From contig CAXLNC010000756.1 in the NCBI GenBank assembly GCA_964187785.1, positions 1 through 64,000 of the forward strand: a DNA stretch of 64,000 nucleotides, written 5' to 3'. The notes below the pieces were generated by a model, which had not been told where the DNA came from, ran no database searches, and was given only the letters and a program-made list of their open reading frames with translations. Both the position numbers and the translations under genes were made by a program. This DNA comes from Amphiscolops sp. MND2022 (Eukaryota). Positions 13,822-53,000 of the stretch are shown here, in pieces; the stretch's first letter is position 1; each line of letters opens with the position of its first letter.

Positions 13822-14172
13822 TGTAATAGTCACCCCTTGATTCGATATTTCCAATATCGGTACACAAATCCTTCTGTACTAATCACAAAAAGTGATTCGA
13901 CTAATTGTCGGTACAAAACAACTTTTCTTCTGTACTAACCATTCTTCAAAACTGGTTCGACCTCGTAGTCGGTAAATTCATCTCTTCTGTAATAATCACA
14001 ACGAGTTATTCAGCTTCGTGCTGGTGCACTTAAACCTTCTGTACTAATCAAGTTGATTCGACTCATGTCGGTACAATTCACGTACTAACCTTCTTTGTTT
14101 CGACATTTGTGTAGGTACACTCTTTTCTGTACTAACCAAAAAACTCTTTAGTTCAACTTTTCTGTTGGTACA
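13822..14172 (+). repeat. Array of 7 structured three-way-junction units in a family-B 5' leader (copy 1)
   Basis: Consensus TGTAC-T-AA(T/C)CA(C)-loop-(G)TG(A/G)TT-CGAC-loop-GTCG-GTACA, with compensatory stems CGAC/GTCG, CAGC/GCTG, CAAC/GTTG, CGATAT/ATATCG. Confidence 0.85.
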
Positions 14173-14439
14173 ACTCGAATAAAAAACTTTTTTTATAGTT
14201 TAAATGTCTCCTTTTTTGTTTTTTAATGACTTCGTTGGCCTCCTTGCGATCGTTCTTCTTGTCGTCGACAAATTTATGATGGATTTCATTACCTGATGAA
14301 TCTTTTTCAACTCAAAATCAATGTTTCTAACCAAAAATCATGCACCTATAATCATTGTTTCATTCAATTCTGGCAAACTTGTTTTTCTCATGTCCTTATT
14401 AAAAAATAGTCACATCCCTTTCCGCTAATTTCCAACGGT

Positions 14440-15527: not shown

Positions 15528-15828
15528 TGCGGATTGAAAATAGTGACCCTTACAAGTGAAAGAGGAGTCAATGATGAAAACAGTGTCTGAAATTGCTTCA
15601 AATTGGAATCTCAGGTCCGTCCATGTGGAAGACTGGGTAAATTCCTGATAGAATGAAGTTGTAGTTAATCGGTGAAGTTGTAGGCCACGGAGGCGAAGAA
15701 GGAGGCGGACGAAAAGAAGTTTCAAAAACAAAAGAAAACTGAATTCTGGATTTTTTGTGGCGCTATTTTGATTTGTATCATAAACACGTTACACACGTTC
15801 TTTCCTTCCATTCTCTATTATAACTTTT

Positions 15829-16179
15829 TGTAATAGTCACCCCTTGATTCGATATTTCCAATATCGGTACACAAATCCTTCTGTACTAATCACAAAAAGT
15901 GATTCGACTAATTGTCGGTACAAAACAACTTTTCTTCTGTACTAACCATTCTTCAAAACTGGTTCGACCTCGTAGTCGGTAAATTCATCTCTTCTGTAAT
16001 AATCACAACGAGTTATTCAGCTTCGTGCTGGTGCACTTAAACCTTCTGTACTAATCAAGTTGATTCGACTCATGTCGGTACAATTCACGTACTAACCTTC
16101 TTTGTTTCGACATTTGTGTAGGTACACTCTTTTCTGTACTAACCAAAAAACTCTTTAGTTCAACTTTTCTGTTGGTACA
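15829..16179 (+). repeat. Array of 7 structured units (copy 2, inside the tandem duplication)
   Basis: Same as 13822-14172, offset +2007. Confidence 0.85.
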
Positions 16180-17534
16180 ACTCGAAAAAAAAACTTTTTT
16201 TATAGTTTAAATGTCTCCTTTTTTGTTTTTTAATGACTTCGTTGGCCTCCTTGCGATCGTTCTTCTTGTCGTCGACAAATTTATGATGGATTTCATTACC
16301 TGATGAATCTTTTTCAACTCAAAATCAATGTTTCTAACCAAAAATCATGCACCTATAATCATTGTTTCATTCAATTCTGGCAAACTTGTTTTTCTCATGT
16401 CCTTATTAAAAAATAGTCACATCCCTTTCCGCTAATTTCCAACGGTACACATGAACCCTTCCCATTCCCATCAACCATAAACTCTGCTTTTTCATAACTC
16501 AATTTTGATATCATTTTCCCTACTGTTTTTAATCACACCTCCGCTAAATGTTCAACCTCTCTCCTTTCTTATATTTTAGCTTCTCTTTCTTCTCCAACCT
16601 TATCATGGCTGTTTCACAATTCATGATAAATACGAATTTTATCCTCTTCCAATGACATTCTTTCATTTTCTCCTTGTTTCTCACACTCAAAATTTATTCC
16701 TGAAACTCCATGGTAAGATTTTCATCCACTCCCCACTGAACCGTTTATTTACCCTGATATCATTTTCGATCTTGGTTCAGATACTACCTTCATCGTCATT
16801 CATAATGTCTGATCAACCTCCTTCTTTCCTTCTCCATTAACCTTTTCCAATAATGATTCCCATTCTCGGCTTTCACGCGAAACCACCCAAAATTTAACCG
16901 AACTCTTCAAAAATCGTATTTATTACTCAACAGTTCCTCTTTCTTATGAAACAGACCCTGAATATATTTACACTATATCTCCTATACGTGAACATCACGA
17001 CTCATATATTTATCACGACACACAATCTTAAGTAAAAACTCCTGGTGAATCTTCATTTTCCATTTCTTTTGCTTTTCCCCTTCAATCTAATGAAATCTTC
17101 CGTAAAAAATTCTAACCCAATATTTACAATCCTATTGCTCTTCTTTTCACCATACTTCTCATAAATCTCTGAGAAAGGAATAACCTCCTACCTCAACATG
17201 ATTTCACTCCCTCTGCTATACAGGAACTCCTCCCAAAAGAAACTCTTTTTGACCTTCCCATTAATAAACAACTTCGCACTATTTAACATAACCCCCATCA
17301 TTCGCTCTCTACCAATATTTTTCAAACTCACCACTTTCAATTACATTTTTTTTCAAAATCTCACTTTAACTGCGCAATTTAGAGAAGTAATTCAAATCTA
17401 CTCTCTTTTTATTCGAAAAAAAATAGACACAGTTACCAATTTGTTTGGAGTTCTAAAATCGCTTGCATTATATTCCTTTCCCAATTCTCTAAAGTTGAAG
17501 TCCTACCTTCTTCCGCTACCTCTGAGAATCATCA

Positions 17535-19330
17535 TGCGGATTGAAAATAGTGACCCTTACAAGTGAAAGAGGAGTCAATGATGAAAACAGTGTCTGAAAT
17601 TGCTTCAAATTGGAATCTCAGGTCCGTCCATGTGGAAGACTGGGTAAATTCCTGATAGAATGAAGTTGTAGTTAATCGGTGAAGTTGTAGGCCACGGAGG
17701 CGAAGAAGGAGGCGGACGAAAAGAAGTTTCAAAAACAAAAGAAAACTGAATTCTGGATTTTTTGTGGCGCTATTTTGATTTGTATCATAAACACGTTACA
17801 CAAAAAATACCTGTGCTAGAAGTTTTCTATGATAGAGTTCCAAATTTTGATGTTCAAATAGGAATTAGGAAAAAAGAAATATGTTTTAAAAGTACCATAA
17901 ATGTAAAAAAATGTTGGGTTCCCATACTAAACTTAGGAAACATTTCGAAAATTTAACATGACAGACAATTTGTCAAACGTAGTTTGAGAAGTTGTAGTGG
18001 GAGATCTATGGGGTGCAATATGAGTAGATTTGTGTTCTGTATTTTGTTCAGATTTAAACATGAACGAAATGACTTTTGCAGAGATAAAGAGGAGTTCATT
18101 ATAAGCGTAGGCCTCTTTAGAATGAGATGTATAATAAGACGTGTCTTTGTCGTCGAGAGGTGAAGAGACAAGATGTTCAAAAACTGCTATTGGTTGACTA
18201 TTTGTTTGGGAATGTTGCAGGGCAACCAAAAATTGTCGTATTGTATGAGATGATCTTGAGGCACAATGAGTGGACGAGTTGTATCATTATGGGTAAGAAG
18301 ACAAGAGTACTGTTTGATGGGATCGTAGTTACGTAGGTATCCCGTAATTTTGGAGTGTTCAAGTGTATATAGAGTTGTCAATGCGAAAGGAGAAATGTTT
18401 TTGTAGTTTGCGAAAATATAGTTCTGTGGTTTTTTGTACTGGATAAATTTAGTAGGAGTTTGATAATGTGTGGCCTTTTGTGAAGTAAAAAGAAATGAAT
18501 GGTCAGTTTCATCTGTTCCGAAATCGTAGATAGACTAGTGAAGAAAGTTAAATTGCAACGAAAAGAGTTTTACGGCGTTGTCAAGCCAGTATTGGTATCG
18601 GGACATTAGTTTGGAGGCAATGGATGTGAAAAAATCTTGATCTTTATCATACACTTTAAATGTGTAGTCGGTAGGGTGCATGTAAAGAGAAGTTAGTTGT
18701 GATTTAAAAGTGAATATGTCGTGAGGATTGGTATCATATGATCATCTCTAATCTAGGAGATTAAAGGTTTTGAAGGTAAATTATGTGGATATATAGGCAA
18801 GGGAAGACACGCCGGATCTTTCATATTTTCATATTTCGTTTTTGGCGGTGGTGGTGTTCCACGAGATATATCATTATTAGTTGTTTCAGGGGGTGTGCGC
18901 TCTTGTGGAGATAGATTATGATGTTCGATTTGATCAAAATTAGTAGTAGGTTGATCTTGGTCCAATTCTTCAAGGAAGAGAAATGTACAGTCATTAAATA
19001 GAGGTTGAGTTACAAAACAAGATCAGTAGTGTTTTGTTTGCTTGTGTCATATTGAAGATACTATTCTGAACCTACGCGAACGAATGGCTTTATCAGATGT
19101 TTTTGGTAGAGGTGCTGAAACTGTATTAACTGGAATATTTTGAAAAGTTTAGAAGTGAAGATAGACAGCCAAAACAGTTGAAGGATTTATTTTGGAGTGA
19201 CAATTTTGTGTTACAAGAACAATCTGCGCAAGAGAAGTGAAAATTCAGACTGGCGTAGGTTTTAAAAGATGGCGGAGTAAAGGGGTAATTTGTTTTGGAA
19301 TTCACTTTGACAGGACTTTCATTTTCATCA
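17535..19330 (-). pseudogene. Post-env distal accessory ORF region (W) of B1, unknown function
   Basis: ORF pieces 18753-18965, 17933-18229, 17532-17738; the LLFVRLLLRLRGLQLHRLTTTSFYQEF...DLRFQFEAIS segment resembles B2 55647-56177. Confidence 0.5.
17763..17802. mobile_element. 40-bp TGTG...CACA insertion at a TTTTT^AAAAA site (also at 15756-15795)
   Basis: tgtggcgctattttgatttgtatcataaacacgttacaca; removing it restores a continuous - strand frame KTSSTGIFKNPEFSFLLFLKLLF. Confidence 0.5.
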
Positions 19331-24544: not shown

Positions 24545-27500
24545 TTTGTTGCGGCATTTGTATCGTATTGGTCTGAAGTAGAAGACAGACTTGAAGCAGA
24601 AGGAGATGTATCAGAAGAAGAATCCAGGATGGTAGTTTTCAACGTTTTGCAGGTGGTATCAAAAGACGATAATCGTTTCTTTGTTGTTGTCTCAAGTTAA
24701 ATGAATTTTAACATTTCGTTCAATTGCAGATTGGTTTTGAGAGGGATGTCAATGTCGGTCAAGGAGTGGATTATTTTGATGAGTTTCAATTATTTGTTTG
24801 AAAAGTGAGTTGTCATTTGAGGGAAGATTAGGAGAGGTGTGATTTGATATTGAAGAAGGTATTAAGGGTTTTGATTGGTAAGATGATGAGAAATCGTTTT
24901 GTGATGATTGTTTATTAGAAAGGGATTCATCTGAAGTAAAAGAAGATGAGTCGCTATTTGCATAATTTGTTTGGGAAGGTCATATTGCAGAAAAACATGA
25001 GGGTACAAAAAAGTTCTTTTGGATAATAGTGTATCGAAAGATTTCGATGTGTATGAAAGGTAGAACCATCCTGAGAAGTTCATACGTGACATCCGAAAGT
25101 CTATCGAGTACTTTGTATGGTCCAATCCGACGTGGTTGTTGAAAGATGAACGTGTTGGAAAATTACGTTTTCATAAAAAATTTCCAACACGGAGAGGTTT
25201 TCTTTCATGATAAATTTTTGTAATATAGGCTTGCTTGAGAGTTGTTTTTACGAAAAGTGTAGAAAGTATATTAGAGAATAGATTTGTAACAAAGCAAGTT
25301 CTACTGCCAGTAACAATTGAGGAAGAGGTTTAGAAAATGTACAATAAAAGAATGAACTAAGATCTGCTTTGTCATAATATGAATGTTCTGGCAGTTCAGA
25401 ACAATACTTTGAAGTACAGGTTCTGTTTAAGTCTCGATTGAGGTTCAAGTCAAATGTGAGTGAAATTCGAGGTTGTGTGTAGAAAACAGTTTCTTGATTC
25501 TTCAGGAGAGACTTTTGAAGAAGAAAGAGGTTGTGAAACATGGGCATAGGCATATATCTTAACTTCGTGAGCCCAATCTTTCGGAATGTTTTGCAGGAAC
25601 ATACGAAGGTGTGTACTAATGTTTTTATTTTGAACTTCAACGAGTCCATTTGTCTTTGTGGAGTAAGGAGTTTTAGGAGAGTGACGAAATCCCATAAGAG
25701 TACATAGTTGTGCCATATCAGTATTAATCTATTTGGATGGAGGATCACTGACAAGGTATATAGGTGAACCGAACTTGATAATCCAATGGTGAAGAAAATA
25801 TTTTACAGCAGTTTTAGCGTTCTTAGATTTGATAGGAACAGTGACATCAAAGTGGCTAAAAGCGTCAACAATGACATGTATGTATGAATATTCTGTGTAG
25901 GAGGATTGATAGGACCTTTTGTGTCCCATGAAATTCTGTTTTTGAAGCCGGAAGCATGTTCAGAAAAAGATTTTTTTGGAGCGGTTTGAATTTTGTGGTT
26001 AAAATATTTGTTACGTTGACATTCAAGAGAATCATGTAAGAAAATGGAAGAACTTCTCGGAAAAAAGGTAATTAATAATACTGTAGGAAGGTGTTTTAGG
26101 TGATTTTGAGACCTTTGTGAGAATTGTCATGAAGTTTATTGAAAGTTGTTCTGGAGAGACAGAATGGTAGGGAAATTTCGGAAGTGGTTTGAGGAATGTT
26201 AGTATTTAGGCCTGAGGATGTTGCAGAAGAGCTTTGTTTTTTCGAAAAAAGGCTGATAATATTGGTAGAGTTATCGATTAAGAGTTGTGAAAAGATTTTA
26301 TAATATGCATGTAAACAGGGAGTACCAGTGATTTGAGGTGTTAGAAACATGGTTTAGTGAGAAAGCCAGTAATATAGAAATTTGAGCGCTGGATCTTGTG
26401 ACTGTTGTTGCTTAAGAGGTTGTTTGTCCAGAGATTGATCATCACGCAAGAAAACGCCTTGAAAATAATTTTTGTAAGAAAGTTGAATCATAAAATGGAA
26501 TAGTTTATAAACAAAGTGTAGAAAGTTTGATATGCTGATGTGTCTCCAAAGCATTAGTAGAAAATGTATCAGTTTTGGAATTTGTGATAGTTGAAAAGTT
26601 TCTGTATAAAGGAATACAGTCAGGTGTGAAGGGTGCAGTATCTTATGGAATTCTTGTACAAAATTGTATAAATCTTATACAAATTCTTGTATATGTATGT
26701 ACAATATATATAAAACTGTATAAAATCTTATGGAATTCTTTTATAAAATATCTTCATCATCACTAATGAAATCGGTTAAAAGTGATTGTTGATGAAGTGC
26801 TTAATTATGATTTTTCTAGGAGTTTTGTTTGAAAAGTTGTGATGGGCTTAAAAGAAAACGATTCAAGAGATTTGAAAATGATATCGTAACCCTTGTCTTT
26901 ATTACGGGTGGAAAATTGGTCTGCCCCATAATGAGCAAGAATAGGGTGAGAATCATGTTTTTGATGATGTAAGACTTCTGCGTGTATAATTAAGCAAGCA
27001 ATGAACAAGTTTAGGTGTGTTGTCTTCAAAGATTGCAATGTCAACTTGCGGAGAACGTTGTTCATGTTTGAGTTGTTTAACTTGTACTTCAGTTTTATTA
27101 AAAAACGCCAGAGCATGTCAGCAACTGAAAGAGTTTTCCAGATGATCGATTTTGAGTTGGGGAAACATTTGGTAATTGCATTTGGGCACGATAGAATTGT
27201 GGACTAAGGCTGCCTTTTTGTAAAACATTTTAAAGGAGGTTCATGATCAGCGATAAAATGGATTATATGAGGAGATCCAAACATGTATGTACCATACCGC
27301 GAAGTTCACGGTCAAGTAAAGAAAGTTTTTGTTCTTGTGAGTTATGGCTTTGAAAGTTGTAACAAGCGACTTTCATTTTTTTTTCTTCATTAAGTTGGAA
27401 ACTGACTGCGCCTAATCCAACAAAAGATACACCAATTGTATTTAAAAAAAATGGATGTTTTGTATTAGGTATTGAAGTTCGGTATCGGATGTGAGAGAAG

Positions 27501-29200
27501 TTTTTAATTTTTGAAATAAAAGTTCGTGTTCAGAGGTCCAGTTCCAGGGGGTGTCTTCATATACCAAGTCTTACGAGGGTTTAAGATTAACATTTGATTT
27601 TTTTTAATGAACCTTGTATAAAAGTTGAGTGCAACTATGAAACTCATAAGAGCAACTTTGCCAGTGGGAGAAGGAACTTTATGAATAGCAGCAAGTTTCG
27701 AAAGAATGTGTCTCATGGTAATATAACCAATTTCATGTCCAAGAAATTTTGACTTTTAGTAACATAAAGAAAGATTTTTCAGGAGCAAGTTTGAGATTCT
27801 TTTGTACTAATTATGTGAAGTTGTTGAATTAGTTGGAACACGTGCTCCTTAGAGTTAGGAAGAAGTAATTTATCATCAATGTATTCAAGGGCGAAACCTT
27901 ATCAAAAAAAGTTGTGAAGAATGATGGCAATATTTCTTTGTCAAGAGACAATTTATGTGAGAGCATACGCGTATGTGATGTTATACTTTACGCATTTATA
28001 ATTTTATTTGCGAGAGCTGGTTGAGGAGCAAGAAGTTCAATAGGCAACGATTCATCAATTTGATCTGTGTTAGAGCTAAGAAGTCTTGCGTCTAAGACAC
28101 ATTCAATAGAGTCTGTTTTAGAGATGATAACAAGTGGATTTAGAATGGTAGTACCATATGTAAGTTTATTATGTAGAAAAGAACCAATTTGTTTAATAAA
28201 TATTGTGTTTTTCTAGTTCTTGGAGAAGGTCATTCAAGTTGTCTCTAAATTATTGGAACTTTGGATGGACATTGTGTCATAAGTTGAGCATTTGGTTCTA
28301 GTCTAATTGTGGAATTTTTTCAACATCGTTTTTAGGGGTACCATAACAATTTTTATGTTTTATCAGAAAGTTACGAAGTGAAACATATTCAGCATCTGTG
28401 AGATCAGAATCCCGAAGTTGAATTCGTTGACAAAAATGAGATTTTTTAGGATAAGGAAGAGAAAGAATCACGCGGTTTAGTTGTTTGAGAAGTTTGTTGT
28501 ACATTATAAAGAGAGGAGTTTGTAGTCTTTGTTACAGTATCTCTCATATAAACTTGATGTAATGAAAAAGTAGGAAAAAAACGTGTTCCTTCAGTGTACT
28601 GTAGAGCATAATTTGTCTGTGGCATAGGTTCACTAATATCTGGATGGTATGTATGATCGTGTACTGAAGAGTTAATATCGTTAACTTGATGATAATAATT
28701 AGGTTTTTCATTAGTATTTGGAACTTCTATATAAACAATATGTCCTGTAGCTAAAGTAGCAATATGGTTGGTAGAGTTTTGTATGATTGTTGCACAAATG
28801 TCAGGTTTTTGTTGAGTTAGAGACTTCAATGAAATTGAATGTTGCACGGACTTTAGGACAGAAAGAAGTATGCGGAGTTGTAGGAAAATCTGATTTTTGG
28901 TGTACTAGTGAAGTAAAGATTATAGTAGTTTTTCATTGGGAAGTGTGCATTTTTAGAGGGATTTAAACGTATTTGTGTTCTAGAATAAATTCTACATATG
29001 TACATGAAGTATGGGTAGTTTTAGATAAGAGTGATCTGACTTTGGTAAAGGTGGGGTGTACTTTTGATTGGTGTTTAAATCGTAAAGTAAAGTCATGGAT
29101 GTTAATATTTCGTGTATATTCTTCCAAAACATTCAGTGAGGTGATACAGATGTACTTCAAAGTTGATAGCATCATCTGGAGTTTGTGGTTGATTGGTGTT
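24545..29200 (-). pseudogene. pol: pol (protease region-RT-RNase H-spacer-integrase), Gypsy order
   Basis: RT YIDD at 27872-27883 followed by LKLAPEKSFFMLLKVKFLGHEIG; RNase H QEQKLSLLDREL...ADHEP...SVADMLWR; IN HSHKG...HDSLECQ, VIVDAFSHF, YLVSDP, NGLVEVQNK (25450-26350). Confidence 0.92.
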
Positions 29201-32200
29201 AAGTGTGTTTCTTGTGTTTGAGTGTCATCGAGATCCAGAGTATCTAGAACCTCTTCCTCTTGGAGGTGGTCTGAATGAGGAAGTTAATTTGGAGAAATCG
29301 TTATCTCGAGAATACGAGCGAGATCTATATCTGTGACGAGATTCATGTCTATGTGGAGATCGATACGAGGATCAATAGGGGGAACAATAAGATCTAGAGT
29401 CTCTTTTATAAGGATCATATCATAAACGAGTATAGTGTGGGAAGTGGTATTTTTGTCGTATGCAAAGCGATCTCTGGTTGTAGAACATTATCTATTTTGT
29501 GAGGTGTTGTTTTTGTTTTTATAAGTGTTACGTGAAGTACTTCAACTTCGATATCGACTATGATGCCGTCTTGTTCTGTCAATGGAAGGAGAACGAAAGT
29601 ACTGCTCAAATGACTTTGGAGGGGATTTTGATCGAACATATGCTTCTCGTTTATCTTTATCATCGCTAGGTTTCTTGAAACAAGCTGAGATGGAGTGATT
29701 TGTTCTGAGACAGTAAGAGCAGTATTTTTATGCAGGTTTTGGTTTGTCATTAGGGTCTCGGGGTTGTGTAAACATAACATGATCGTTTTGAGAAAAATCG
29801 AGAGTTTGTGTTTGAAATTGTTTTGTAATATTATTGACTTCAAAAATAAGATCACGTGTACGTATCTTGTCATTAGCAATATCTTCAGCGTCAACTAATT
29901 TTACTACTGTATTAAAGGAAATAAACAGTTCTAAAATAGTAGAATTATGTTTCACTTGTTGTTTACTGGCAGTTGATGTCTTTGAGATTTTTGGGAGTCC
30001 TTCTGTGAAGATTTCATTGCATTTCAAATCTCTTGTTTATGCGTTTTCATTGAATCAGCATTTTTCAACAATGTGTTAAACCTTGAGTGTAAAATGACGA
30101 ACTGTTTCATTGGTTTAGTGACAAGATTAAGTGCTTCAACTTGGGCGTAGTAAGCGTTTTTTTTGTGATAAAAATTGTTTTTTAAATGCTTGTACAAAAG
30201 CACGCCAGCCTTGTGTCATTCAAAAGAATGCACCAACTGAGACTGTGCCAGTTAAAGAACATTGTATAAAAGCAATATGTCTAGCGTGCCAAAATTTGTA
30301 TTCGTGATCTGAACTAGGGTGTAAACCTAAGGAAAAAATACTAGATACTTTTCAGGTGTAATTTTATGATCCAAACCATCAATGGGGTTCAATAGGATCA
30401 GAAATTGATGCAGAAGAAATGAAATATGTTGGGTTTGATACTGTTGAAGGAGGGATTGTTAAGGGTGGTAATATATGATAAGTAGGTGTAATGAAAGGAT
30501 TTGCAGGTTATTTTGTATAAATCTAAAATTTTGAGTAGATGTAGTGTTAATATGAGGATTTGTTCTGATATTCGAAAATTTGAAGTCTATTTAGGATTAT
30601 TCGAAGTAAAAAATGAGAAGTCTGAACTGTATTGGGTGTATCATTAGAACAGTGAGATTTTGAAAGTAAATTGATTTTGGTAGCAAAATGATGAGGGTTA
30701 TAGGTGGAAATTTGTTGTGTCTTATTTGGATTTGTACTTGTTAGACTAAATGAAAGTAGATTTGTAGGAATGGTTTGTAAGGGAGGTCGAGATAAGTTTC
30801 TAGAAGTAGTATAATGAGATAAGGTATTGGTATGAAGGATACTTATTGTAAGATAACGTTGAGTATTTTGCGTATGACATGTTTCGACGGGAATATTTGA
30901 TAATGTTTTGTGATGTGATTGTCTTTTTCGAGTGTTTCTCTGAAATTGAACTTCTGGTGGATTTTCTATTGTGTTTGTGATAGGTGCATTTGACGAACCT
31001 TGTTGAGAATAGTTTTGTGGAGTAGTGTGTTTAGAATATTAGGGTGGAACATGAGGTGGTTCATCATACTCCTTAATTTCGGGGTGAAGTGTGTTGAATT
31101 CGAAGTGATTGTGTAGTATTAGTGATTGATGTCAATATAGTAGTTGTATCTTCTTGATTTTGATTGTTATGTTCTTGTTCGGTTATTGGCCTAACAGGTA
31201 TGTGTAATAAGTTGGAGCCTGTTGTAATTTCTGATGGTCGGTTGTTTGTAGTTACATCTGAAGTATCAGGTAATCTTTGGAATGTAATTGTTCTTTGTTG
31301 TTCATTTGTTCTAGGATCATGTTGCGTTTTTGGTTGTTCTTGAGGAGCGCCTCCGTATTATTCTTCTTGTTGAGGTGTGTCTTCTTGACCTTGAAATGGG
31401 TCTTCATGTTTATAACTGAGATTTTGTTGTTTTATCTCTGTGTTATCATTATCAAAAGATGTTTCAGAGATAAAATTGGAAGTGGTATATGGTCTATTAT
31501 AAGATGTTTCAGAGTGTTTTGTAATGAAATGATCGTCAATAAAATGATCGTAATAAAATGATCGACTTATTTGTCTCAAATGGGATGACGCGTTAAAGAT
31601 GGTAAGATCTTTGTAGTATCTATGTTTATTATGAGTTTTTATGATAAATGGTAAGAGTTATGTTTCTGTTAGTACTTGTTGGAAGTGAATATACGCAGCT
31701 TGACCTTGTTTCTCTCACATTGGTTGATAGTTAAATCTAAAAGGTGTGAAAGGAAGTGTAAAAAACATTTATTTGTGTAGTGGTATCTACGTTGATTATA
31801 ATGTTTTGAAAGAATTTGTATTGGAAATGTTTAATTTGTAAGATATCTTGTTGTAACCAGAATTGGGAATTGTTATGTCTTTGTATCTTTTTCTCGAGAT
31901 CAGGTACTTGGGAATATGGTGTTTTTCTTCAAGACTTTTTAAAAGAGAAAGACGAAAAATTGGTACATCTAAGATCCCATTGTGTTCTATCAATTTATTT
32001 ATATAGGTGATGGAAACATCTTGGATGGGGAGTGTTATACTTTGTGGATATATAGTTCTATAGTAAGTTCCTGAATTTATATTTGGGACCTGATTAAAAG
32101 GAAATTGGAAAGGAGTTTGAGAAGGAGTTATGTTTAGCGATTTGTACTGAAGGTAATATAAATAAGAGTCTCTAAGTGTTCTCTAAGAATGGGAACAATT

Positions 32201-32400: not shown

Positions 32401-32717
32401 CCATAAAGGATACACGTACTGAAGAATAAGACATTGTAGATTATAATGAAAATTATATGGAATATTTTGATCGACGAAAACAAATTGAAGAAAGATTACA
32501 AGTACAATAGTACGAAAAAGTAAGAGGTTGTTAGGTATTAACGAAGTGAGAGTACAAATAGTATGGTATATACCAAGGAGTCCAAAAGAGGAAGTTTTAC
32601 CCTTTGGACCATAAGTAAATTGTTAAAAACTTGAAGTTTAGGTATTAAAGGTACCAAGAAGCTGTCAAAGAACCAGCAAGTAGACCAAGAGAGAACCAGA
32701 GTCAAATATTAAATCGT

Positions 32718-34848
32718 AGTATTCAAAGGCTGAAGGCATTTAGAGAATTGGTTATGTTTTGTAATATAATATTTTGTTATGTAAATATAGGTTGTAATAA
32801 AATGTGTATTATTGTATTATAGTATAGTATTGTATTTCTATCGAGTGTAGTATAATATGTCATATATTGTATATAAAAGAGTTATAATGTTGTATATAAA
32901 TCACGTGGAACTTTTTTTTTTAAAAAGAAACGTATAATAGCTGAAAATGTATGAGAAGTGGCTAGAAACTGAGTCTCAACTAGCAGAATCGCTGAATAGC
33001 ACTGTAGAGAAACCAACACGTATCGCACGTCTGTGGTTGGAACGATGAATTGAAAACCCGCAGGAATCACTGAGGTAGTGTTTGGAACGGAGAAAAATAA
33101 TTTTTCCAGCACGTATCACTGTTAAAGTGGTTGGAACGAAAGTATATTAACCAACACGAATCACATTTTTTGTGGTTGGAACAAAGAATAATTGACAAAA
33201 CGTATCACTTCGAAAGTGGTTTGAACGGAAATGAAGCATAACAGCAGAAAGTACGCGGGTTACGTAGTCAGAACCATACCAACATGAATCAATTTTTGAG
33301 TAAAATTGGTTGGAACGATTAAATAACAGCGTTAGAAAAAAAGAAGAGGAGAGACTGTGTGTCAAACAAACAGTTCTTGGTAGCTAGCTTATCTTTACTT
33401 TCACAAGATCTATTAGGACTGAGATCTTAGATTGTTCTTCTTTTTCTCAGATTAGAAATCGTCTTCAATACAAGAGTCGAGTAATTCTTCTGATTATAAA
33501 GTCACACTGATTACTTCAGTGATTACATCTAGTAAAGATTAGATTCTATCTCATTGAACGATTCACAGGATCATTACTTCTAGAATGAAAGTATAATGAG
33601 ATTATTAGTAAATGTCAGCATCTTAATTCTAAAGTGTTAACTTCTGAATCAAGTGACATATGTCAATGTTTTTGGTCGAATAGTTTAGATATATTTCAAG
33701 TTTATGAAATTACTTGGGGACATGCATCATGGCAATACAACTTGACAGCGTCGTCGAAAATGTTGAGCCACATGAGAGAGAGAGAGAAGTGAGAGTATTC
33801 AAAGGCTGAAGGCATTTAGAGAATTGGTTATGTTTTGTAATATAATATTTTGTTATGTAAATATAGGTTGTAATAAAATGTGTATTATTGTATTATAGTA
33901 TAATATTGTATTTCTATCGAGTGTAGTATAATATGTCATATATTGTATATAAAAGAGTTATAATGTTGTATATAAATCACGTGGAACTTTTTTTAAAAAA
34001 AAGAAACGTATAATAGCTGAAAATGTATGAGAAGTGGCTAGAAACTGAGTCTCAACTAGCAGAATCGCTGAATAGCACTGTAGAGAAACCAACACGTATC
34101 GCACGTCTGTGGTTGGAACGATGAAATGAAAACCCGCACGAATCACTGAGGTAGTGTTTGGAACGGAGAAAAATAATTTTTCCAGCACGTATCACTGTTA
34201 AAGTGGTTGGAACGAAAGTATATTAACCAACACGAATCACATTTTTTGTGGTTGGAACAAAGAATAATTGACAAAACGTATCACTTCGAAAGTGGTTTGA
34301 ACGGAAATGAAGCATAACAGCAGAAAGTACGCGGGTTACGTAGTCAGAACCATACCAACATGAATCAATTTTTGAGTAAAATTGGTTGGAACGATTAAAT
34401 AACAGCGTTAGAAAAAAAGAAGAGGAGAGACTGTGTGTCAAACAAACAGTTCTGGGTAGCTAGCTTATCTTTACTTTCACAAGATCTATTAGGACTGAGA
34501 TCTTAGATTGTTCTTCTTTTTCTCAGATTAGAAATCGTCTTCAATACAAGAGTCGAGTTATTCTTCTGATTATAAAGTCACACTGATTACTTCAGTGATT
34601 ACATCTAGTAAAGATTAGATTCTATCTCATTGAACGATTCACAGGATCATTACTTCTAGAATGAAAGTATAATGAGATTATTAGTAAATGTCAGCATCTT
34701 AATTCTAAAGTGTTAACTTCTGAATCAAGTGACATATGTCAATGTTTTAGGTCGAATAGTTTAGATATATTTCAAGTTTATGAAATTACTTGGGGACATG
34801 CATCATGGCAATACAACTTGACAGCGTCGTCGAAAATGTTGAGCCACA
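32718..34848 (-). repeat. 1076-bp tandem duplication of the B1 5' leader / LTR-like region (32718-33793; 33794-34848)
   Basis: ORF pairs offset by 1076 (32882/33958, 33147/34223); near-identical sequence. Confidence 0.95.
33013..33317 (-). repeat. Array of 6 stem-bulge-stem units in the B1 leader (duplicated at 34089-34393)
   Basis: - strand GTT-CCAAC-CAC(n)-loop-(n)GTG-AT(A/T)C(G/C/A)T-GTTGG; one unit has a CAATTTT/AAAATTG upper stem. Confidence 0.85.
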
Positions 34849-34969
34849 TGGACGCCGTATAAATCGTATGTATCGTCTTGTTCAGACCTGCCGTGCACTG
34901 ACAAAAAAAGAGTTCGATACAGCAAAAGTGACACCGGGACTCGCATATCTCCCGCAATAAAAAGAAGCT

Positions 34970-42900: not shown

Positions 42901-44250
42901 TTTTTCGATCCATCCGTTTTTGCTCATTGTAGAGCTTTTGAAAACTTTTTTCTTGCATCTAATACCTCTCGAACGAGACTTTAAGCTCATCATAAAGAGG
43001 GCCCTGTTTCCTCCACTGTTTATACATGGTTGAAACAAAAACAAAGACCCTTCTTTTTAACTACAACTAACTCTTTTCTATATAAATACTACAAACAATT
43101 CCAACATTTATATATTGACCCAAACTCACATCTTATCCAAAAATATATACCCCCAACTCCCGAATATTTGATGAAAATTCTATCAGAGCTCAACCCACTA
43201 TTAACCAAAACCGCATTTGTTTACCGTTCAAACTTTTCTATGCTGCTTTTGAAAAAACAAATATATTTGGACACTCTGTTGAAAAACAATCTATCAAAAC
43301 ATTCAATCAATTTTGTTACGTTCTTCATTTACCTTTATGGTTTTCTATTATCATTCATGATTGTTTTGAATGCCAAACAGTTTCTTAATAAAGAATTTTT
43401 TTCATGCTCTACCATTTTATGAAAAGGCAGCTCACTTTAGTTATAGAATCTCCATGGACACTAAAAGGCCTATTGCTCCTTCTTCACATGGTAACTCTTA
43501 TGTTCTTGTAATCGTTGATGCTTTGAGTCACTTTGTTGTCACAAATCCTGCTCTTCATATTTCCCCTAAAGATGCTATTCAAGCACTGCTCTTTCATTGG
43601 ATTACTAATTTTGTCCCACCTCAATATCTCGTAACTGATCGAGGTACTGAATATATTAACCAAGATATGACCCAAATTTGTTCTCTCTTTGTAATATTGA
43701 CCATTCTCCACCTACTCCGCACACACCCCTTGGACAAATGGTTTAACCGAAGTCCCAAATTGAAATCTTGGAACTCACCTCTGTTCATTTAAACAAAACC
43801 CTCCCACTAATTGGTCATTTCGATATCAAATGTATTATGCCCATAATACTTTTCCTATTTCTAAACCTGAACTTAATCCATATCAAATTGTTTTCCATAA
43901 ACACTCTCCTATTCCATTACCCATTCCTCTCAATCAATCACGTGACTCTTCCAAAAACTGTATTGCGGCATATTGTATATCTCTTCCACCTCATACAAAT
44001 TATAATTTTAACATTATTATAGTATCACTCTACTCGCCCGCGACTTAACATTCCTGATTCTGTCTCCCATCAAAGTATTCTTTCTAATTGACCTCAAAAC
44101 GAATTTGAAACCCTTTTTGAATCTTTTAATCAAACACTTCTATTAAAACCAATGCTCAACACAAAACGGATTACACCCTTTTTTTGACAAAATTTCTCTC
44201 CTTCCATTCCTCTAAAAGACCGTTTAGATGATACGGTTGACTTCATAGAC
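39950..44250 (+). pseudogene. pol: pol (PR-RT-RNase H-spacer-IN)
   Basis: Protease LLILDSSACICVLNLPT (~40050); RT YIDY (41452-41463, D->Y) and MRFIGSMNF; RNase H SEQKHSNL.LREL...AGMLSR; IN MDTKRPIAPSSHGNSYVLVIVDALSHF...YLVTDRGTEY...NGLTEV (43370-43792). Confidence 0.92.
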
Positions 44251-45186
44251 TCTGATTTTGGATTGCTCCAAAATCTTATGTGTCATTCTCTACCTCTTCT
44301 TGCACATCCACGTGTTGCTGATTCTCCCAATCTTTCTTCTGAATCTTCACCCGAATCTCAAACCTTACCCATCATATTCGAGCTCCTCTCTCACCATATA
44401 CCTTACGCCTTCTTTCCAGACTCTCGTTGAATTGTCCTTTGTCTAGACAAAAAGTGTTGTCTGACATCTGGCAATCACAATCTAACTATGAGCCATCTCC
44501 ATGAATACCTACTGCTCATTTTGTTGACAGCCTTTAACTGAATAGTCGCCTAAAAAGATAGTTGATAAATGTTTCAGTTTGCTTCTGCTTACTCTATCAT
44601 CCATTATTATAACACTTATTAAATAGACTAATACAATTGCTCAATAACACTTACTAATAATATTCAAAACTCTTTTATCCTCTGTTTCCTCCTCATTTTC
44701 AACTGTTACTTTAAATCCTCTCAAACCTCGTCTTTATTTTTACACTGTCCTCCTTTAACCCATATCCCTATTCTTTAAATACTACTCCCACTAACACTCC
44801 TACACTCACTCCCAAAACCGCTCCTACTAAGAAATTTTAACAAACCTTAACCTCGTAAATCAATCTTAGTTCCTACTTCTATTGAAGGACGTCGTAGACA
44901 ATCTCAATTTGGACCTACTTTCCCTCTTCCAACACCTTGCATAACCATTCAACCTTTATCTTCGCTTCCACCTCCTAAACCTTTAACAATCCTTGTTCTT
45001 GAATCTAGTTGCGCTTCTAAGCATGCCACTTCCTCTTTAGAAATACTCTTAGAAACCTCTTCCGAATCTACTATTCGCAGACCTGCACGCCATTGATATA
45101 ATCTTAGGTATAGTTGTAACACTACACCTTATCTTGCAAGCAGTAACTCCTCTTTATTAAGACATCACGCTCAATCTCTTTCATCT
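44250..45186 (+). pseudogene. pol C-terminal tail / accessory segment X (partly repeated at 46770-47470 and 54130-54360)
   Basis: RRPARH.YNLRY.CN.TPYL at ~45080-45130 and ~47360-47410; tggcaatca segment at ~44470, 46777 and 54145. Confidence 0.6.
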
Positions 45187-46470
45187 AACCCCATTCACCA
45201 TTGTTTGGGTCACAGAAGAACTATGTTCATTTTTTTCAACCCACTTCTTGATTAGACGTATGTCTAAACTTAATAACCCTTACTGGCTTGAAACTGAACA
45301 CTCCTGTAGTAACAGTAATTCTAATGAAACTACTTCCCATGACTCCGAATCTCAAACCCGTCTCTCGTTTTGAAACTTTCGCCGAACAAAATTTGTTTTG
45401 CAATAAATCCACATCTTTATGTACCACTCAATACCCTGATCTCCTAATTAGATAAAAGAAGATTTGAACATGCACACTGGTAAACGTAATTCTCTTCAAT
45501 TACCTGAAGATGAACAAGATGATAGACTTTTCACCCAATTATGTCTGGGAATAAAAATCACACTCAAAATAAGTTCCTTTTTCTCTGCGTTAAACTCGTC
45601 AAACAGTTTTGCCACTATTGATTAGGTTGCCCATAAAAATACTAAAACTGACTACTCTACTAATAATGTTCTTGAAACAGTGTGAGTTGCTGAACTTAAC
45701 ACTCTCCATAATATTCATGAAGTCAAACGAACTCAACTTTTAACCGTCCTCACAATGCTTCTTAAAAATCCACAACTTGCTGCTTTTCTCTTAACTCAAA
45801 AGCGTAGTATTTTTTATAGGTCGAAGGCTCAACTGCCTGGCTTTATGGATGTCCTTATCATCTTTCGCCTCTATATATAGCTGAACAATGTTTTGACAAA
45901 ATTCCTGTTAACTACATTGCCAGTCTTATGTATATTGACTCTGTCACGCGCCAAACGTTTGAATATGGTAATCAAATAACAAAAATGTTACTGCTCTTGA
46001 CCCTGACAGTTATCAAAATTACGTCTTAACTCCACAACATATTGAAAAAGACCCTCCTTTACTTTCGTTTTTGGAATCGTGTTCTCTTCACCATACATTC
46101 TGATAAAACGTTGCTTCTTGGCAAAGCTTTTAGTTATGAAATTATGAGTAAAAAATCTTCTTAACTATTCCCCAAAAATCCGTACAAAAATTCGAATTGG
46201 TCTCCATGCATATGTGTTAAACCATTTTCACACCTGATTGGTTAACTTGATTGGTTACCCTCTTTCGTTACCCATGTTAATTATTAACCCAAAGTGGAAT
46301 TTGTTTTGCCTTTGTTCTTTTTCTTTAATTTGCTTGCAACACACTCCTTACTTTTTACCACTCATTCACAGTTATGAAAGTTCCTAAAAAACAAACCTCC
46401 CTCCTTTTTGCTCTTGCCTATGTTTTTTTAGAACCATAACTAAAACACTGATGACTGCTATCACCATGTC
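45187..46470 (+). pseudogene. env: env-like fragment (N-terminus deleted), first copy in B2
   Basis: TPFTIVW, LNNPYWLET, AELNTLHNIHEVKRTQLLTVLTMLLKNPQLAAFLL, FWNRVLFTIHSDKTLLLGKA, hydrophobic C-terminus. Confidence 0.75.
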
Positions 46471-47537
46471 TCCCGACGCTACCTGAAATTCTGATGATTC
46501 TGATGCACATCCACCCTCTAATTTCAAATCTACTTTTAACACGACATTAAAACACTCTCGAATTTTTTTTGTTTTCTCGATACCAAATCCAAATTACTAT
46601 GTCTTGAAAAAAAAAAACACGGATCAAAGATCTCCCCCTAAGAATCGCTTTCTATTAATAATTCTCCTCGTCACTCTCAAGTACCTGCATTGTGTTCGCC
46701 TCCACATTTACATATGTACTTCTCCTGAAGATAATTTTTTGACAACTCCTTCAATAATTTCCCCATATCCAATGTGTGGCAATCAACTAAAGTTTATCCT
46801 CCTACTCCACCACCTATGAAATTTATGACATCCCATCAACATCTGTCAATAGTATACTTAATCCTCCCGAAAGCGCTGCTAAAATGCATTCATTGTGTCG
46901 CTTCCCAGTTGAATACATTTAGGTCTCTTTCTTTCCATACTATTCATCACTTCTCTTTCTCTCTGCTCATCGTTCAGTTCATCATGCTCATATTCGTGAT
47001 CCCAGTGAAATTGACCCAATACTCTGAAAAAATAATAACAAACCTTAACCTTGTAAATCAATCTTAGTTCCTACTTCTATTAAAGGACGTCGTGGAACCT
47101 CTCAATTTGGTCCTTTTTTCATCTTCCAAAACCTTGCATAAACACTCGACCTGTATCTCGGCTTCCACCTCCTAAACCTTTGACAATCCTTGTTTTTGAT
47201 TCTTTTGACAGACTCAGTGAAAACTCCTTTTAAGTGACGTTGACTCTACTAGATTGTTCCCTATTTATTATCGTCTTCCTCCTTCTAGTTCCTCTTCTAA
47301 GCATACCACTTCCTCATTAGATATTATCTTAGAAAAATCTTCCGAACTTTCTATTCGCAGACCTGCACGCCATAGATATAACCTTAGATATAATTGTAAC
47401 CCTACGCCGTATCTTGCAAGCACTAACTCCTCTTTATTACGACATCACGCTCAATCTCTTTCATCTGACTCTCTTTCATCTCGCAAAAATATTCAAAGTT
47501 CTGGTGTTGACACTGCCCTCTCCCAACTTCCTATAAA

Positions 47538-48169: not shown

Positions 48170-50060
48170 TTGGTTTCTCACTTTGATTCTTCCAAACAAC
48201 ATAATCTCCGTCAATGCAGTTTACCTCGAGTACAACCTTGTGCTCAAGTCCCTTCCTCCTTTGAACGCATGCTTCCTCCTCATGCTTTTGCAAATGTTTT
48301 TGTTCGCGCTATAGCTAAACGCCTGAAAGTATGGACCTGTGAAGATTATGTTAAACGTGAAAAATTTGTTTGTGCACAATATGATTGTAAATACTGACTA
48401 TAATCAGAACACCATGGACTTCAGACCCTAAAGAATGCTATTCGTCAACTAATTGGAATTGATAATCCTCAACTTAAGGCTTTTGATATTAGCAACTTCT
48501 CAACTTCATTTGATGATGTAAAAACCAACAACTCCGTGAAACTAAAAAACCTCCTTTTCGTATACCACTCAACACTTTTCCTTGTTTGGATAACAAACTG
48601 TCAACTTGTTTTAAAGGCAACGCTAGAAGAAAACGCTGTTTTCGGGTACCGCTATGATTATAAAATTGAATAAGATAGTTGGTCTTTAATTGTTCGAAAC
48701 TTGAAATCAACTATGATGATAAATATAGTAACTTCATTTATCATGGAAAAACCTTTTCTTTCCTCCATGATGATGATTTTGCAAACCCACCATTTTAACC
48801 ACATTCACCATTGTTTGGTTCCCGGGAGAACTATGTTCATTTTTTTCAATCCACTTCGTTATTAGACGTATGTCTGAACTTAATAACCGTTACTGTTTCG
48901 AAACCCAACACTTCTGTAGTAACAGTGATTCTAATATTCCTCTTGAAACTTCTTGTCATGACTCTGACTCTCAAACCCGTCTCTCTAGTTTTGAAAGCTT
49001 CCCCGAAAGTAAATTGTTTTGCAATAAACCCACAACTTTATATACCACTCAATACGCTGATCACCTAATAACATATTAAGATGACTTTATCATGCACACT
49101 GGTAAACGTACTCCTCTTGAATTACTTGAAGATGAACAATATGATTCACCCAATTATGTCTAGTAATATAATCCACACTAAAAATAGGCTCCTTTTTTTC
49201 CTGCGTTAATTTCGTCAAACAATTTTGCCACTATTGATTAGGAAGCCCATAAATATACTAAAACTGACTACTCTATTAATATTGTTCTTAAAACAATGTG
49301 AGTTGCTGAACTGAACACTCTCCATACTATTCGCGAAATCGAACGAACTCAACGCCTCCAACATCCACACCTTGCTGGTTTTCTCTTAACTCAAAAGCGT
49401 TGCATTTCGAAAGCTCAACTACTTGTCTTTATGGATGTCCTCATCATCTTTCCCCTCTATATTTAGCTGAACAACGTTAGGATAAAATTCATGTTAACTA
49501 CTTTGCCACCCTTATGTATGTTGACCCAATCACTCGCAAAAATTTTGAATAAGATAATCAAATAACAAAACGTTCCTGCTCTTGACCCTGATAGTTATCA
49601 ATATTATGTCTTAACTTCACAACATATTTAAAAAGGCCCTCCTTTACTCTCATTTTTGGAATCGTGTTCTCTTCACCATACATTCTTATAAAACGTTGCT
49701 TCTTGGCAAAGCTATTAGTTATGAAATTATGAGTAAACAATCTTCTTAACTATTCCCCAAAAATCCGTACAAAACTTCGAATTGGTCTCCATGCATATAT
49801 GTTAAACCTTTTTCACACCTGATTGGTTAACTTGATTGGTTCCCTTCTTTGGTTACCCAAATTTTATATTAACTCAATGTGGATTTTCTCTCTGCACTGG
49901 TATTTTTGTTTAATCTGCTTTCAACGCACTCGCTAGTTTATACCGCTCACTCACAGCTAGGAAAGTTCCTAAAAAACAAATTTCCCTCCTTTCCGCTTTT
50001 TCCTATGGTGTTTTGGAACCACAAGTAAAACAATGATGACTGCTATTACCACGTCTCCCG
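48170..50060 (+). pseudogene. env: env-like gene, most complete B2 copy
   Basis: FDSSKQHNLRQCSLPRVQPC...VFVRAIAKRLKVWTCEDYVKREKFVC (48170-48397), then the same mid and C-terminal motifs as B1 env. Confidence 0.75.
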
Positions 50061-53000
50061 AACCTAACTCAGACTCTGATGATTCCGAAGCACCTCCATC
50101 CCCTAATTTTAAACCTACTTCTAATACGAGTTTAAAATACTATCGATTAATTACACGTAATCCCAATAAACAATCTAAATTACGATTCCTTGAAAATGAA
50201 AGTACCATGCAAAGATCTTCACCTAAGAATCGCGATCTATTATTAATCTATCTCCTCGTTACACTCTTAATAGCGCCCTTCAATTTATTGGGAATTATTC
50301 ACCTCCTCCGCCTAATTATAACTTACATAATAATATAACAAAATAATTTCAACTTATTCTTCAATATAATCATTCTCCTGGTCAATCTCAATTAGCTACA
50401 TTGTCTTCGCTTCCACATTTGCATATCAACTTGTTTTAAAGGCAACGCTAGAAGAAAACGCTGTTTTCGGGTACCGCTATGATTATAAAATTGAATAAGA
50501 TAGTTGGTCTTTAATTGTTCGAAACTTGAAATCAACTATGATGATAAATATAGTAACTTCATTTATCATGGAAAAACCTTTTCTTTCCTCCATGATGATG
50601 ATTTTGCAAACCCACCATTTTAACCACATTCACCATTGTTTGGTTCCCGGGAAAACTATGTTCATTTTTTTCAATCCACTTCGTTATTAGAAGTATGTCT
50701 GAACTTAATAACCGTTACTGTTTCGAAACCCAACACTTCTGTAGTAACAGTGATTCTAATATTCCTCTTGAAACTTCTTGCCATGACTCTGACTCTCAAA
50801 CCCGTCTCTCTAGTTTTGAAAGCTTCCCCGAAAGTAAATTGTTTTGCAATAAACCCACAACTTTATAAACCACTCAATACGCTGATCACCTAATAACATA
50901 TTAAGATGACTTTATCATGCACACTGGTAAACGTACTCCTCTTGAATTACTTGAAGATGAACAATATGATTCACCCAATTATGTCTAGTAATATAATCCA
51001 CACTAAAAATAGGCTCCTTTTTTTCCTGCGTTAATTTCGTCAAACAATTTTGCCACTATTGATTAGGAAGCCCATAAATATACTAAAACTGACTACTCTA
51101 TTAATATTGTTCTTAAAACAATGTGAGTTGCTGAACTGAACACTCTCCATACTATTCGCGAAATCGAACGAACTCAACGCCTCTTAAACATCCACACCTT
51201 GCTGGTTTTCTCTTAACTCAAAAGCGTTGCATTTCGAAAGCTCAACTACTTGTCTTTATGGATGTCCTCATCATCTTTCCCCTCTATATTTAGCTGAACA
51301 ACGTTAGGATAAAATTTCTGTTAACTACTTTGCCACCCTTATGTATGTTGACCCAATCACTCGCAAAAATTTTGAATAAGATAATCAAATAACAAAACGT
51401 TCCTGCTCTTGACCCTGATAGTTATCAATATTATGTCTTAACTTCACAACATATTTAAAAAGGCCCTCCTTTACTCTCATTTTTGGAATCGTGTTCTCTT
51501 CACCATACATTCTTATAAAACGTTGCTTCTTGGCAAAGCTATTAGTTATGAAATTATGAGTAAACAATCTTCTTAACTATTCCCCAAAAATCCGTACAAA
51601 ACTTCGAATTGGTCTCCATGCATATATGTTAAACCTTTTTCACACCTGATTGGTTAACTTGATTGGTTCCCTTCTTTGGTTACCCAAATTTTATATTAAC
51701 TCAATGTGGAATTTCTCTCTGCACTGGTATTTTTGTTTAATCTGCTTTCAACGCACTCGCTAGTTTATACCGCTCACTCACAGCTGGGAAAGTTCTTAAA
51801 AAACAAATTTCCCTCCTTTCCGCTTTTTCCTATGGTGTTTTGGAACCACAAGTAAAACAATGATGACTGCTATTACCACGTCTCCCGAACCTAACTCAGA
51901 CTCTGATGATTCCGAAGCACCTCCATCCCCTAATTTTAAACCTACTTCTAATACGAGTTTAAAATACTATCGATTAATTACACGTAATCCCAATAAACAA
52001 TCTAAATTACGATTCCTTGAAAATGAAAGTACCATGCAAAGATCTTCACCTAAGAATCGCCATCTATTATTAATCTATCTCCTCGTTACACTCTTAATAG
52101 CGCCCTTCAATTTATTGGGAATTATTCACCTCCTCCGCCTAATTATAACTTACATAATATTATAACAAAATAATTTCAACTTATTCTTCAATATAATCAT
52201 TCTCCTGGTCAATCTCAATTAGCTACATTGTCTTCGCTTCCACATTTGCATATCAACTTGTTTTAAAGGCAACGCTAGAAGAAAACGCTGTTTTCGGGTA
52301 CCGCTATGATTATAAAATTGAATAAAATAAATGGTCTTTAATTGTTCGAAACTTGAAATCAACTATGATGATAAATATAGTAACTTCATTTATCATGGAC
52401 AAACCTTATCTTTCCTCCATGATGATGATTTTGCAAACCCACCATTTTAACACCATTCACCATTGTTTGGTTCCCGGGAGAACTATGTTCATTTTTTTTC
52501 AATCCACTTCATTATTAGACGTATGTCTAAACTTAATAACCGTTACTGGTTCGAAACCCAACACTTCTGTAGTAACAGTGAATCTAATGTTCCTCCTGAA
52601 ACTCCTTGCCATGACTCTGACTCTCAAACCCGTCTCTCTTGTTTTGAAAGCTTCCCCGAAAGTAAATTGTTTTGCAATAAACCCACATCTTTATATACCA
52701 CTCAATACGCTGATCTCCTAATAACATATTAAGATGACTTTATCAGGCACACTGGTAAACGTACTCCTCTTGAATTACTTGAAGATGAACAATATGATTC
52801 ACCCAATTATGTCTGGTAATATAATCCACACTCAAAATAGGCTCCTTTTTTTCCTGCGTTAAACTCATCAAACAGTTGTGCCACTATTGATTAGGAAGCC
52901 CATAAATATACTGGAACTGACTACTCTATTAATATTGTTCTTAAAACAATGTGAGTTGCTGAACTGAACACTCTCCATACTATTCGCGAAATCGAACGAA

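Follow-up and report, generated by a model that had tools for sequence, protein, structure and literature searches.

What does a row of short, nearly identical inverted repeats do in the leader of a long terminal repeat (LTR) retrotransposon? The question is raised by a 64,000-nt stretch of DNA from Amphiscolops sp. MND2022 (GenBank assembly GCA_964187785.1, contig CAXLNC010000756.1, positions 1 to 64,000). We refer to this whole stretch as the window, and all coordinates below are positions within it. On its minus strand, at 33013-33317, lies an array of stem-bulge-stem units that belongs to a decayed element, here called B1. An initial annotation described six such units in the leader of B1, joined them to a second array at 13.8 kb, and likened them to hepadnaviral epsilon or TAR-type sites that might serve in place of a tRNA primer binding site (PBS). 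We find that the array was under purifying constraint throughout a large family, that its units differ from one another in compensated ways, and that the family uses an ordinary PBS. We tentatively propose that the array is a multivalent RNA docking site for Gag.

Architecture of the array

The six units on the minus strand at 33013-33317 follow the pattern CGTT-CCAAC-(upper stem)-loop-(upper stem)-AT(T/A)C(G/A/C)T-GTTGG. Each unit thus consists of the flank CGTT, a lower stem of 5 nt, an upper stem of 4-7 nt, a loop of 3-5 nt, a 6-nt 3' bulge with the form AT(T/A)CGT, and the closing strand GTTGG. The units are 44-45 nt long, and Tandem Repeats Finder reports a period of 44 with a score of 127. 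A covariance model (R1) was built from 70 intact units of relatives (alignment A2) and the whole window was scanned with filters off. The model picks out precisely the six annotated units and their six duplicates in a second array (34089-34393, minus strand, in the upstream block of a tandem duplication), 12 matches in total with E <= 0.011 and every one on the minus strand. The best match outside the B1 arrays has E = 2.4. The six units of the initial annotation are therefore real.

U1 (33279-33313; R1 match 33276-33317, E 2.1e-9) reads CCAAC-CAATTTT-loop-AAAATTG-ATTCAT-GTTGG, and its minimum-free-energy fold has the stem-bulge-stem shape. U2 (33196-33223; R1 match 33193-33227, E 3e-4) has the upper stem CACTT/AAGTG. 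U3 (33151-33179; R1 match 33148-33183, E 1.5e-12) has CACA/TGTG and the bulge ATTCGT, and U4 (33106-33134; R1 match 33103-33138, E 3.7e-8) has CACT/AGTG and the bulge ATACGT. The upper stem of U5 (33057-33085; R1 match 33054-33089, E 0.011) is also CACT/AGTG, the bulge and lower stem of this unit being mutated in the window. U6 (33013-33040; R1 match 33010-33044, E 1.6e-9) has CGCA/TGCG in relatives and CACA/TGCG in the window. All of these units lie on the minus strand, and the upper stems listed in the initial annotation (CACA/TGTG, CACT/AGTG, CACTT/AAGTG and CAATTTT/AAAATTG) are all present.

The array has more than these six units. The 88-nt gap between U1 and U2 holds a seventh unit that had been overlooked, U1b (about 33242-33271, minus strand; columns 83-121 of alignment A1, described below). 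It has a similar outline in different letters, reading CTGAC-TACGT-loop-ACGTA-ATTCCT-GTCAG in relatives, and is decayed in the window copy. A weak eighth unit, U7 (32980-33007, minus strand), reads CTA-CAG-T-GCT-loop-AGC-GATTC-CTG-C-TAG. Its helices are 74-82% paired, roughly half of the copies have lost three of its pairs and 3 of its 18 stem columns are polymorphic, and it is doubtful that U7 is part of the array.

The window copy also carries damaged stems in U2 (CAAAC/TTTTG), U4 (CCAAC/GCTGG), U5 (CCAAA/GCGGG) and U6 (CACA/TGCG), all of which have intact forms in relatives. The conservation of the lower stem and 6-nt bulge, which had been read from the window, holds among the copies of the family and fails for several stems of the window copy itself. 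By eye, the GTGTTGG that ends one unit could pair with the CCAA(C)CAC that opens the next, and the array could thereby switch between helices within and between units.

The B1 element and the position of the array

B1 is a Ty3/gypsy-type LTR retrotransposon with its sense strand on the minus strand of the window and the domain order RT - RNase H - integrase. Its decayed gag-pol region (24983-29721, minus strand) has a CCHC zinc knuckle near 29721 and, in decayed pieces of open reading frames (ORFs), an RT_RNaseH domain (27266-27529), an integrase core (rve, 25732-25959) and an integrase SH3 domain (24983-25162), all on the minus strand. One relative (L014) has an RT_RNaseH match with E 2.3e-10 as well as rve_3. 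The 1057-bp block that contains the array gives 1452 first-look candidates in the host genome (1.07 Gb). The family is old and dead, and the copies seen are all decayed.

A full-length relative on contig C5 is collinear with B1 across about 18.5 kb. In this relative a module corresponding to window 33740-33359 is present at both ends (434 bp aligned, 85.7%), and the module with the array is present only behind the 5' copy. The first module is therefore the LTR and the array lies in the leader, as had been proposed for the 5' end of a minus-strand element. The ends of the LTR are TGTGA.../...GTACA (TG..CA). In the window the 5' LTR of B1 (33373-33738, minus strand) starts with TGTATTGCCATG and its last ~88 nt are gone; no 3' LTR was found for the window copy. 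The full-length relative (L013 and L014, G000:C5:16973611-16980028) contains a 3.2-kb internal tandem duplication of its pol region, the two copies of which are 94.7% identical.

The array had also been placed a few hundred nucleotides upstream of gag. This distance is not confirmed. The only marks of gag that were found lie about 2.7-3.3 kb downstream of the array: the knuckle near 29721 and, in a relative (L017), a weak match to Retrotrans_gag. The knuckle has the form CX2CX4HX4C and occurs at the matching gag position in the window and in a further relative (L019); the control strands contain none. The start of gag was not found, the ORFs just downstream of the array giving no Pfam family. 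A 178-aa ORF in L017 was considered as the start of gag and rejected: it looks non-coding, gives no usable Atlas match, and has only 32 residues that align to the window ORF.

Conservation of the array within the family

With the array alone as query, 780 first-look candidates were obtained, of which 40 places were scored, two being the window's own. All 40 carry the array, at 73-85% identity. The 40-row alignment (A1) shows unit-by-unit orthology, and in 38 of the 38 other copies the units stand in the same order as in the window. Their number and order are fixed in all of these copies save for local deletions or one local duplication, and the span from U1 to U6 is stable, with a median of 303 nt. 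The proposal that the array is a family-wide leader element is upheld by its presence in every other copy scored and by the constraint described next.

Among 39 copies the stems have a mean column identity of 0.909, the 3' bulge one of 0.902 and the CGTT flank one of 0.925; loops and spacers are lower, at 0.795 and 0.786. A second allele is found in at least 8 of the 39 copies at 3 of 210 stem, bulge and flank columns, compared with 38 of 108 loop and spacer columns (Fisher p = 4e-17). Alleles common to so many copies are changes from the living period of the family. The single shared change in a stem converts an A-U pair to G-U, one shared change in the bulge is the T/A variant that is likewise seen between units, and the bulge has retained its CpG. 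Purifying constraint acted on the stems, the 3' bulge AT(T/A)CGT and the CGTT flank; the loops and spacers drifted.

These patterns bear on the simplest explanation of the array, in which a short palindromic unit was amplified by slippage in the leader and then inherited as a tandem repeat with no function. Tandem repeats are common in the untranslated parts of LTR retrotransposons; both arrays of the window lie in regions prone to larger tandem duplication, and the folding stability of the units, given below, is weak. A functionless repeat would nevertheless leave unexplained the fixed number and order of units, the way in which shared polymorphisms shun the stems, bulge and flank, the retention of a CpG-bearing bulge, and the compensation of differences between units. 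We regard this explanation as distinctly unlikely.

Predicted base pairing within the units

The upper stems of different units had been reported to vary in a compensatory way. This is confirmed by alignment A2, in which 6 of 9 pairs are changed on both sides between units. A2 has 58 compensated cells compared with 12.6 in shuffled alignments, a number that none of 500 shuffles reaches, and sliding the partners leaves 13-42% of cells paired. A2 was assembled from rows with intact pairing, and rows that represent the same unit type are related to each other, so that these cells amount to about six compensated events: U1b accounts for three, and U1, U3 and U6 for one apiece. RNAalifold recovers the stem-bulge-stem shape from the units unaided, with 5 of 8 pairs compensated, and in U1b two pairs of the lower stem are altered on both sides. 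In all 39 copies, unselected, 87.5% of upper-stem cells are paired with their own partner and 64.4% with the partners of other units.

The small number of independent events in A2 is one of several points that weigh against the array being an RNA structure. Folding of the whole array is no better than that of shuffled sequences (z of -0.26 for the sense strand, -0.06 for the antisense strand and -0.43 for a relative), and single units reach only about -4 to -8 kcal/mol, with a mean z of about -0.8 for 6 of 8 units. Given 40 full arrays, RNAalifold does not recover the units and predicts almost nothing (-3.29 kcal/mol). Among genomic copies there is no covariation signal, 87.7% of cells being paired compared with 87.3% when partners are shuffled, and compensated cells are few (17 compared with 10.1). 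No strand signal is seen either, with 128 cells of the G-U type and 115 of the A-C type. The lack of a pairing excess or wobble bias among copies is expected under neutral decay after insertion, and these comparisons are uninformative on strand. Finally, the stems are conserved as letters, with CCAAC/GTTGG in six units, which a DNA-binding factor would explain equally well.

The array of a sister family

The array at 13.8 kb is that of a sister family with a homologous leader, and a PBS is common to both families. It occupies 13822-14172 on the plus strand, with a duplicate at 15829-16179, and consists of seven units with the order GTAC - hairpin 1 - hairpin 2 - GTAC. The sister family gave 823 first-look candidates and its LTR starts near 13467. 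The pyrimidine-rich start of its leader can be aligned by eye with that of B1. Its PBS (13769-13781, plus strand) is mutated in the window, where it reads TAGTGCGACCAGC, and has the form TGGTGCGACCAGT in relatives: among 12 of these the match is exact in 4, has one or two mismatches in 7 and is deleted in 1.

The sister units are also compensated. They are 88.6% paired, compared with 84.0% after shuffling, and contain 57 compensated cells compared with 21.7, and none of 500 shuffles attains either value. In hairpin 2, compensation is seen at three of four pairs, with the variants CGAC/GTCG, CAGC/GCTG and CAAC/GTTG. A covariance model of these units (R2) gives 14 matches at E <= 0.0016, corresponding to seven units in two copies.

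The initial annotation had named a failure of the two arrays to match one model as a result that would refute its proposal. The arrays do fail in this way. R1 and R2 each find their own array only, and neither picks up a unit of the other array at E <= 10 with filters off. A core of the form AAYCAC..GTGATTCG, said to be common to both arrays, can be seen by eye and is not matched by a single model. GTGATTCG occurs 6 times in the window where 1.83 are expected, a count attained by 2 of 100 shuffles. All but one of these occurrences are in the arrays, where the duplicates inflate the count. In the sister family, the letters of the B1 bulge and lower stem belong to two hairpins. The helices are thus wired differently around a primary core that has been kept, a further point to be set against an RNA structure. 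The sister array also contains GGTTCGA, for which mimicry of a B-box or T-arm was considered; by eye, the letters that follow it do not seem to fit the B-box.

In the main rival reading, the array acts as DNA. It would then be a row of sites for host transcription or chromatin factors below the promoter, and hence an enhancer or insulator. By eye, AACCAC/AACCGC resembles a Runx-type core. The half-sites CGTTCCAACC and GAT(T/A)CGTGTTGG are strongly conserved in primary sequence, the thermodynamic support for RNA folding is weak, no wobble signal marks the sense strand, and the sister family retains the core letters and pairs them otherwise. The gypsy-like elements ZAM and Tirant provide precedents (PMC5408687). 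What fixed letters leave unexplained is the behaviour of the inner stems, which vary and yet stay complementary (CAATTTT/AAAATTG, TACGT/ACGTA, CACA/TGTG, CGCA/TGCG). The same is true of the two lower-stem pairs of U1b that changed on both sides and of the variants of sister hairpin 2 given above. We consider a DNA-level array possible, if on balance doubtful.

The primer binding site

No PBS-like site is left on the minus strand of the window, and the initial annotation had taken B1 to be an element with no convincing tRNA PBS. Relatives show otherwise. Their solo and 3' LTRs diverge right past ...AAGCAGTACA, the point at which 5' copies go on with TT-TGGTGCGACCACGAA. The survey covered 38 loci, with units 1 and 6 present in 33 rows from 32 loci, one row being a spurious match on the opposite strand. 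The PBS-like sequence TGGTGCGACCACGAA (at most 3 mismatches) is found in 25 of the 33 rows, at a median of 149 nt upstream of unit 1, and in 21 of these 25 the LTR-end motif stops precisely 2 nt before it. The order in the leader of relatives is therefore LTR end, 2 nt, PBS, about 135 nt and array; the array is retained and set after a conventional PBS.

The primer is indicated by four identical tRNA-Met(CAT) genes in the genome, whose 3' end, once CCA is added, is complementary over 11 nt to the B1 PBS and over 13 nt to the sister-family PBS TGGTGCGACCAGT. These genes were obtained with a plain pattern of acceptor pairs. A pattern anchored on the T-loop had given variant genes only (one tRNA-Val(TAC) with 13/13, and 2 of 8 tRNA-Leu(TAA) with 12 nt) and was set aside, a pattern with TTCG before the acceptor strand gave no match, and a loose Y/R pattern did no better than its control (1156 matches compared with 929). 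Further contacts between the leader and tRNA-Met were also sought and rejected: the best run beyond the PBS is 10 nt, the shuffled mean is 9.8, and 109 of 200 shuffles reach at least the observed length. Degenerate tandem clusters of tRNA genes occur at three loci (L029, L030 and L023), with many acceptor stems mismatched. They comprise eight tRNA-Leu(TAA) spaced every 270 nt, seven tRNA-Met plus one with a Leu(CAA) anticodon, and five tRNA-Val.

Both duplicates in the window are without about 175-180 bp that are present in relatives, namely the last ~88 nt of the LTR, the PBS and ~90 nt of leader, with the deletion junction near 33373/33372. The window copy has no PBS because of this deletion, which explains why none had been recognised and removes the reason for invoking priming at the bulges. 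The record of this locus is corrected accordingly: the element had an ordinary tRNA-Met primer site, and protein priming need not be invoked.

Epsilon-like protein priming, in which the bulges would template the start of the minus strand in an element with no tRNA primer site, drew on the shape of a stem with a 6-nt bulge and on the absence of a PBS from this one copy. It is contradicted by the tRNA-Met PBS in relatives of both families, placed in those of B1 2 nt past the LTR end and lost from the window copy by deletion, and by a pol whose RNase H and integrase are of the Ty3/gypsy type. A search of Rfam 15 gave no match at E <= 1 in 32600-34900 or 13400-14400, and so none to epsilon or TAR. 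We consider such priming extremely improbable. The resemblance to TAR-type sites also fails, as the array follows the PBS by about 135 nt and is not placed ahead of it in the 5'-terminal R region.

Proposed function

Its place after the PBS makes the array a segment of the full-length RNA, in which it lies between the PBS and the marks of gag, that is, the CCHC knuckle near 29721 and the weak Retrotrans_gag match. Its position, its multiplicity and its fixed unpaired bulge fit a role in packaging. We therefore propose, tentatively and as a reading that could well prove wrong, that the array is a multivalent RNA docking site for zinc-knuckle Gag, a packaging signal. In the genomic RNA the units would fold into small stem-bulge-stem hairpins; a row of such weak, sequence-specific hairpins would together bind Gag through its CCHC knuckle; and the docked Gag would mark the genomic RNA for packaging. 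We infer that the constraint acted at the level of RNA and not of DNA, that Gag is the partner and that packaging is the purpose.

The same structural and constraint evidence would serve an RNA element with another job, and the data name no partner. The units might bind a host RNA-binding protein that serves nuclear export, translation control or the stability of unspliced RNA, or they might mediate dimerisation. The loops are free to vary, which argues against dimerisation by loop-loop kissing, and retroelements generally have their export elements close to the 3' end, which counts against a role in export. We think another RNA function unlikely.

If the docking-site proposal is true, B1 offers a simple model for specific genome packaging through multivalent weak sites; alternatively, the array offers a new model of a leader enhancer or insulator. 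In either case it has been constrained over the life of a large family, with hundreds of candidate copies, and has a counterpart with different wiring in a sister family. A broader and more doubtful idea is that animal gypsy-like elements have repeatedly used rows of small, sequence-specific leader hairpins as a tandem-repeat packaging signal. Multivalency would then replace the single elaborate Psi fold of retroviruses. In this clade the row would have persisted over a long period, with a fixed GUGAUUCG-type core around which sister families came to wire their helices differently.

Tandem duplications and other features of the window

The B1 array is contained in two blocks of 1057 bp each (32718-33774 and 33794-34850, minus strand; together 32718-34850) that are 99.1% identical, with a (TC)n filler between them. 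Each begins with 35 nt of flank that does not belong to the element, followed by the truncated LTR, the array itself and about 260 nt past it. Since the blocks begin with this flank and are joined by filler, they reflect a genomic duplication that postdates the insertion. The 13.8-kb array is likewise inside a recent tandem duplication (2005 bp at 99.9%, 13791-17802). In relatives, part of the LTR, the leader array and the 5' internal region are repeated head to tail with periods of 2837, 4551 and 2936 bp (L016, L017 and L018), and four sister-family copies are spaced 1.3-3.9 kb apart (G000:C5:18876802-18884321). These elements seem to have 5' ends that readily undergo satellite-like amplification.

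Between 12000 and 58000 the sense strands of all three gypsy-like elements are strongly C-rich and G-poor. The GC skew is 0.3-0.49 in 2-kb windows across this region and its sign tracks the strand of the element. Three head-to-tail copies of a 1.83-kb unit, 96-99% identical, occupy 48601-54080, with an older copy at 82% identity at 45186-46678; these repeats are inside a plus-strand element that bears an integrase at 43370-43792. A BEL/Pao-type pol is present at 58924-62912 on the minus strand, with a 511-aa open frame that contains DUF5641 and the zinc-binding and core domains of integrase, and an aspartyl-protease frame is found upstream of this pol.

Comparison with known systems

A row of seven hairpin units in a leader is unusual, though it has precedents. 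No description of hairpin arrays in the leaders of LTR retrotransposons turned up in full-text searches of the literature, which is not proof that there is none. To our knowledge, the cis-acting signals of animal LTR retrotransposons beyond the yeast and Drosophila systems are almost unmapped.

In Drosophila, the gypsy element carries an array of Su(Hw) sites in its 5' untranslated region. ZAM and Tirant have a tandem array between the 5' LTR/PBS and gag that is conserved within the family (PMC5408687). The likeness to B1 is that of a tandem array at this position in a Ty3/gypsy element. The arrays of gypsy, ZAM and Tirant differ in being repeats of 102-307 bp or plain protein-binding DNA sites, and compensated stems are not described for them, whereas the B1 units are 44-45 nt long and each is an inverted repeat with an inner stem that is specific to the unit but complementary.

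The nearest functional parallel to the proposed docking site is with packaging signals such as Psi of MLV and MMTV and the determinants of Ty1 and Ty3 (see PMC8096270 and PMC4974528). Like these, the array is a leader site after the PBS; its small predicted stems would expose unpaired bases, and its presumed partner is a Gag with a CCHC knuckle. The known signals are single composite structures, whereas B1 has a row of near-identical units.

Hepadnaviral epsilon shares the stem-bulge-stem outline and the 6-nt bulge. Epsilon is a single element that primes on the terminal protein of the polymerase itself, in a virus with no tRNA PBS, whereas in B1 the units number seven or eight, the PBS is complementary to tRNA-Met, pol is of the Ty3/gypsy type and Rfam gives no match.

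The operator hairpins of the coat proteins of RNA phages such as MS2 and PP7 have been used in engineered arrays, the natural operators being single. They resemble the B1 units in being short hairpins with a sequence-specific unpaired motif, and rows of them would give high avidity. They share no common descent with the B1 array, and the analogy is one of mechanism only.

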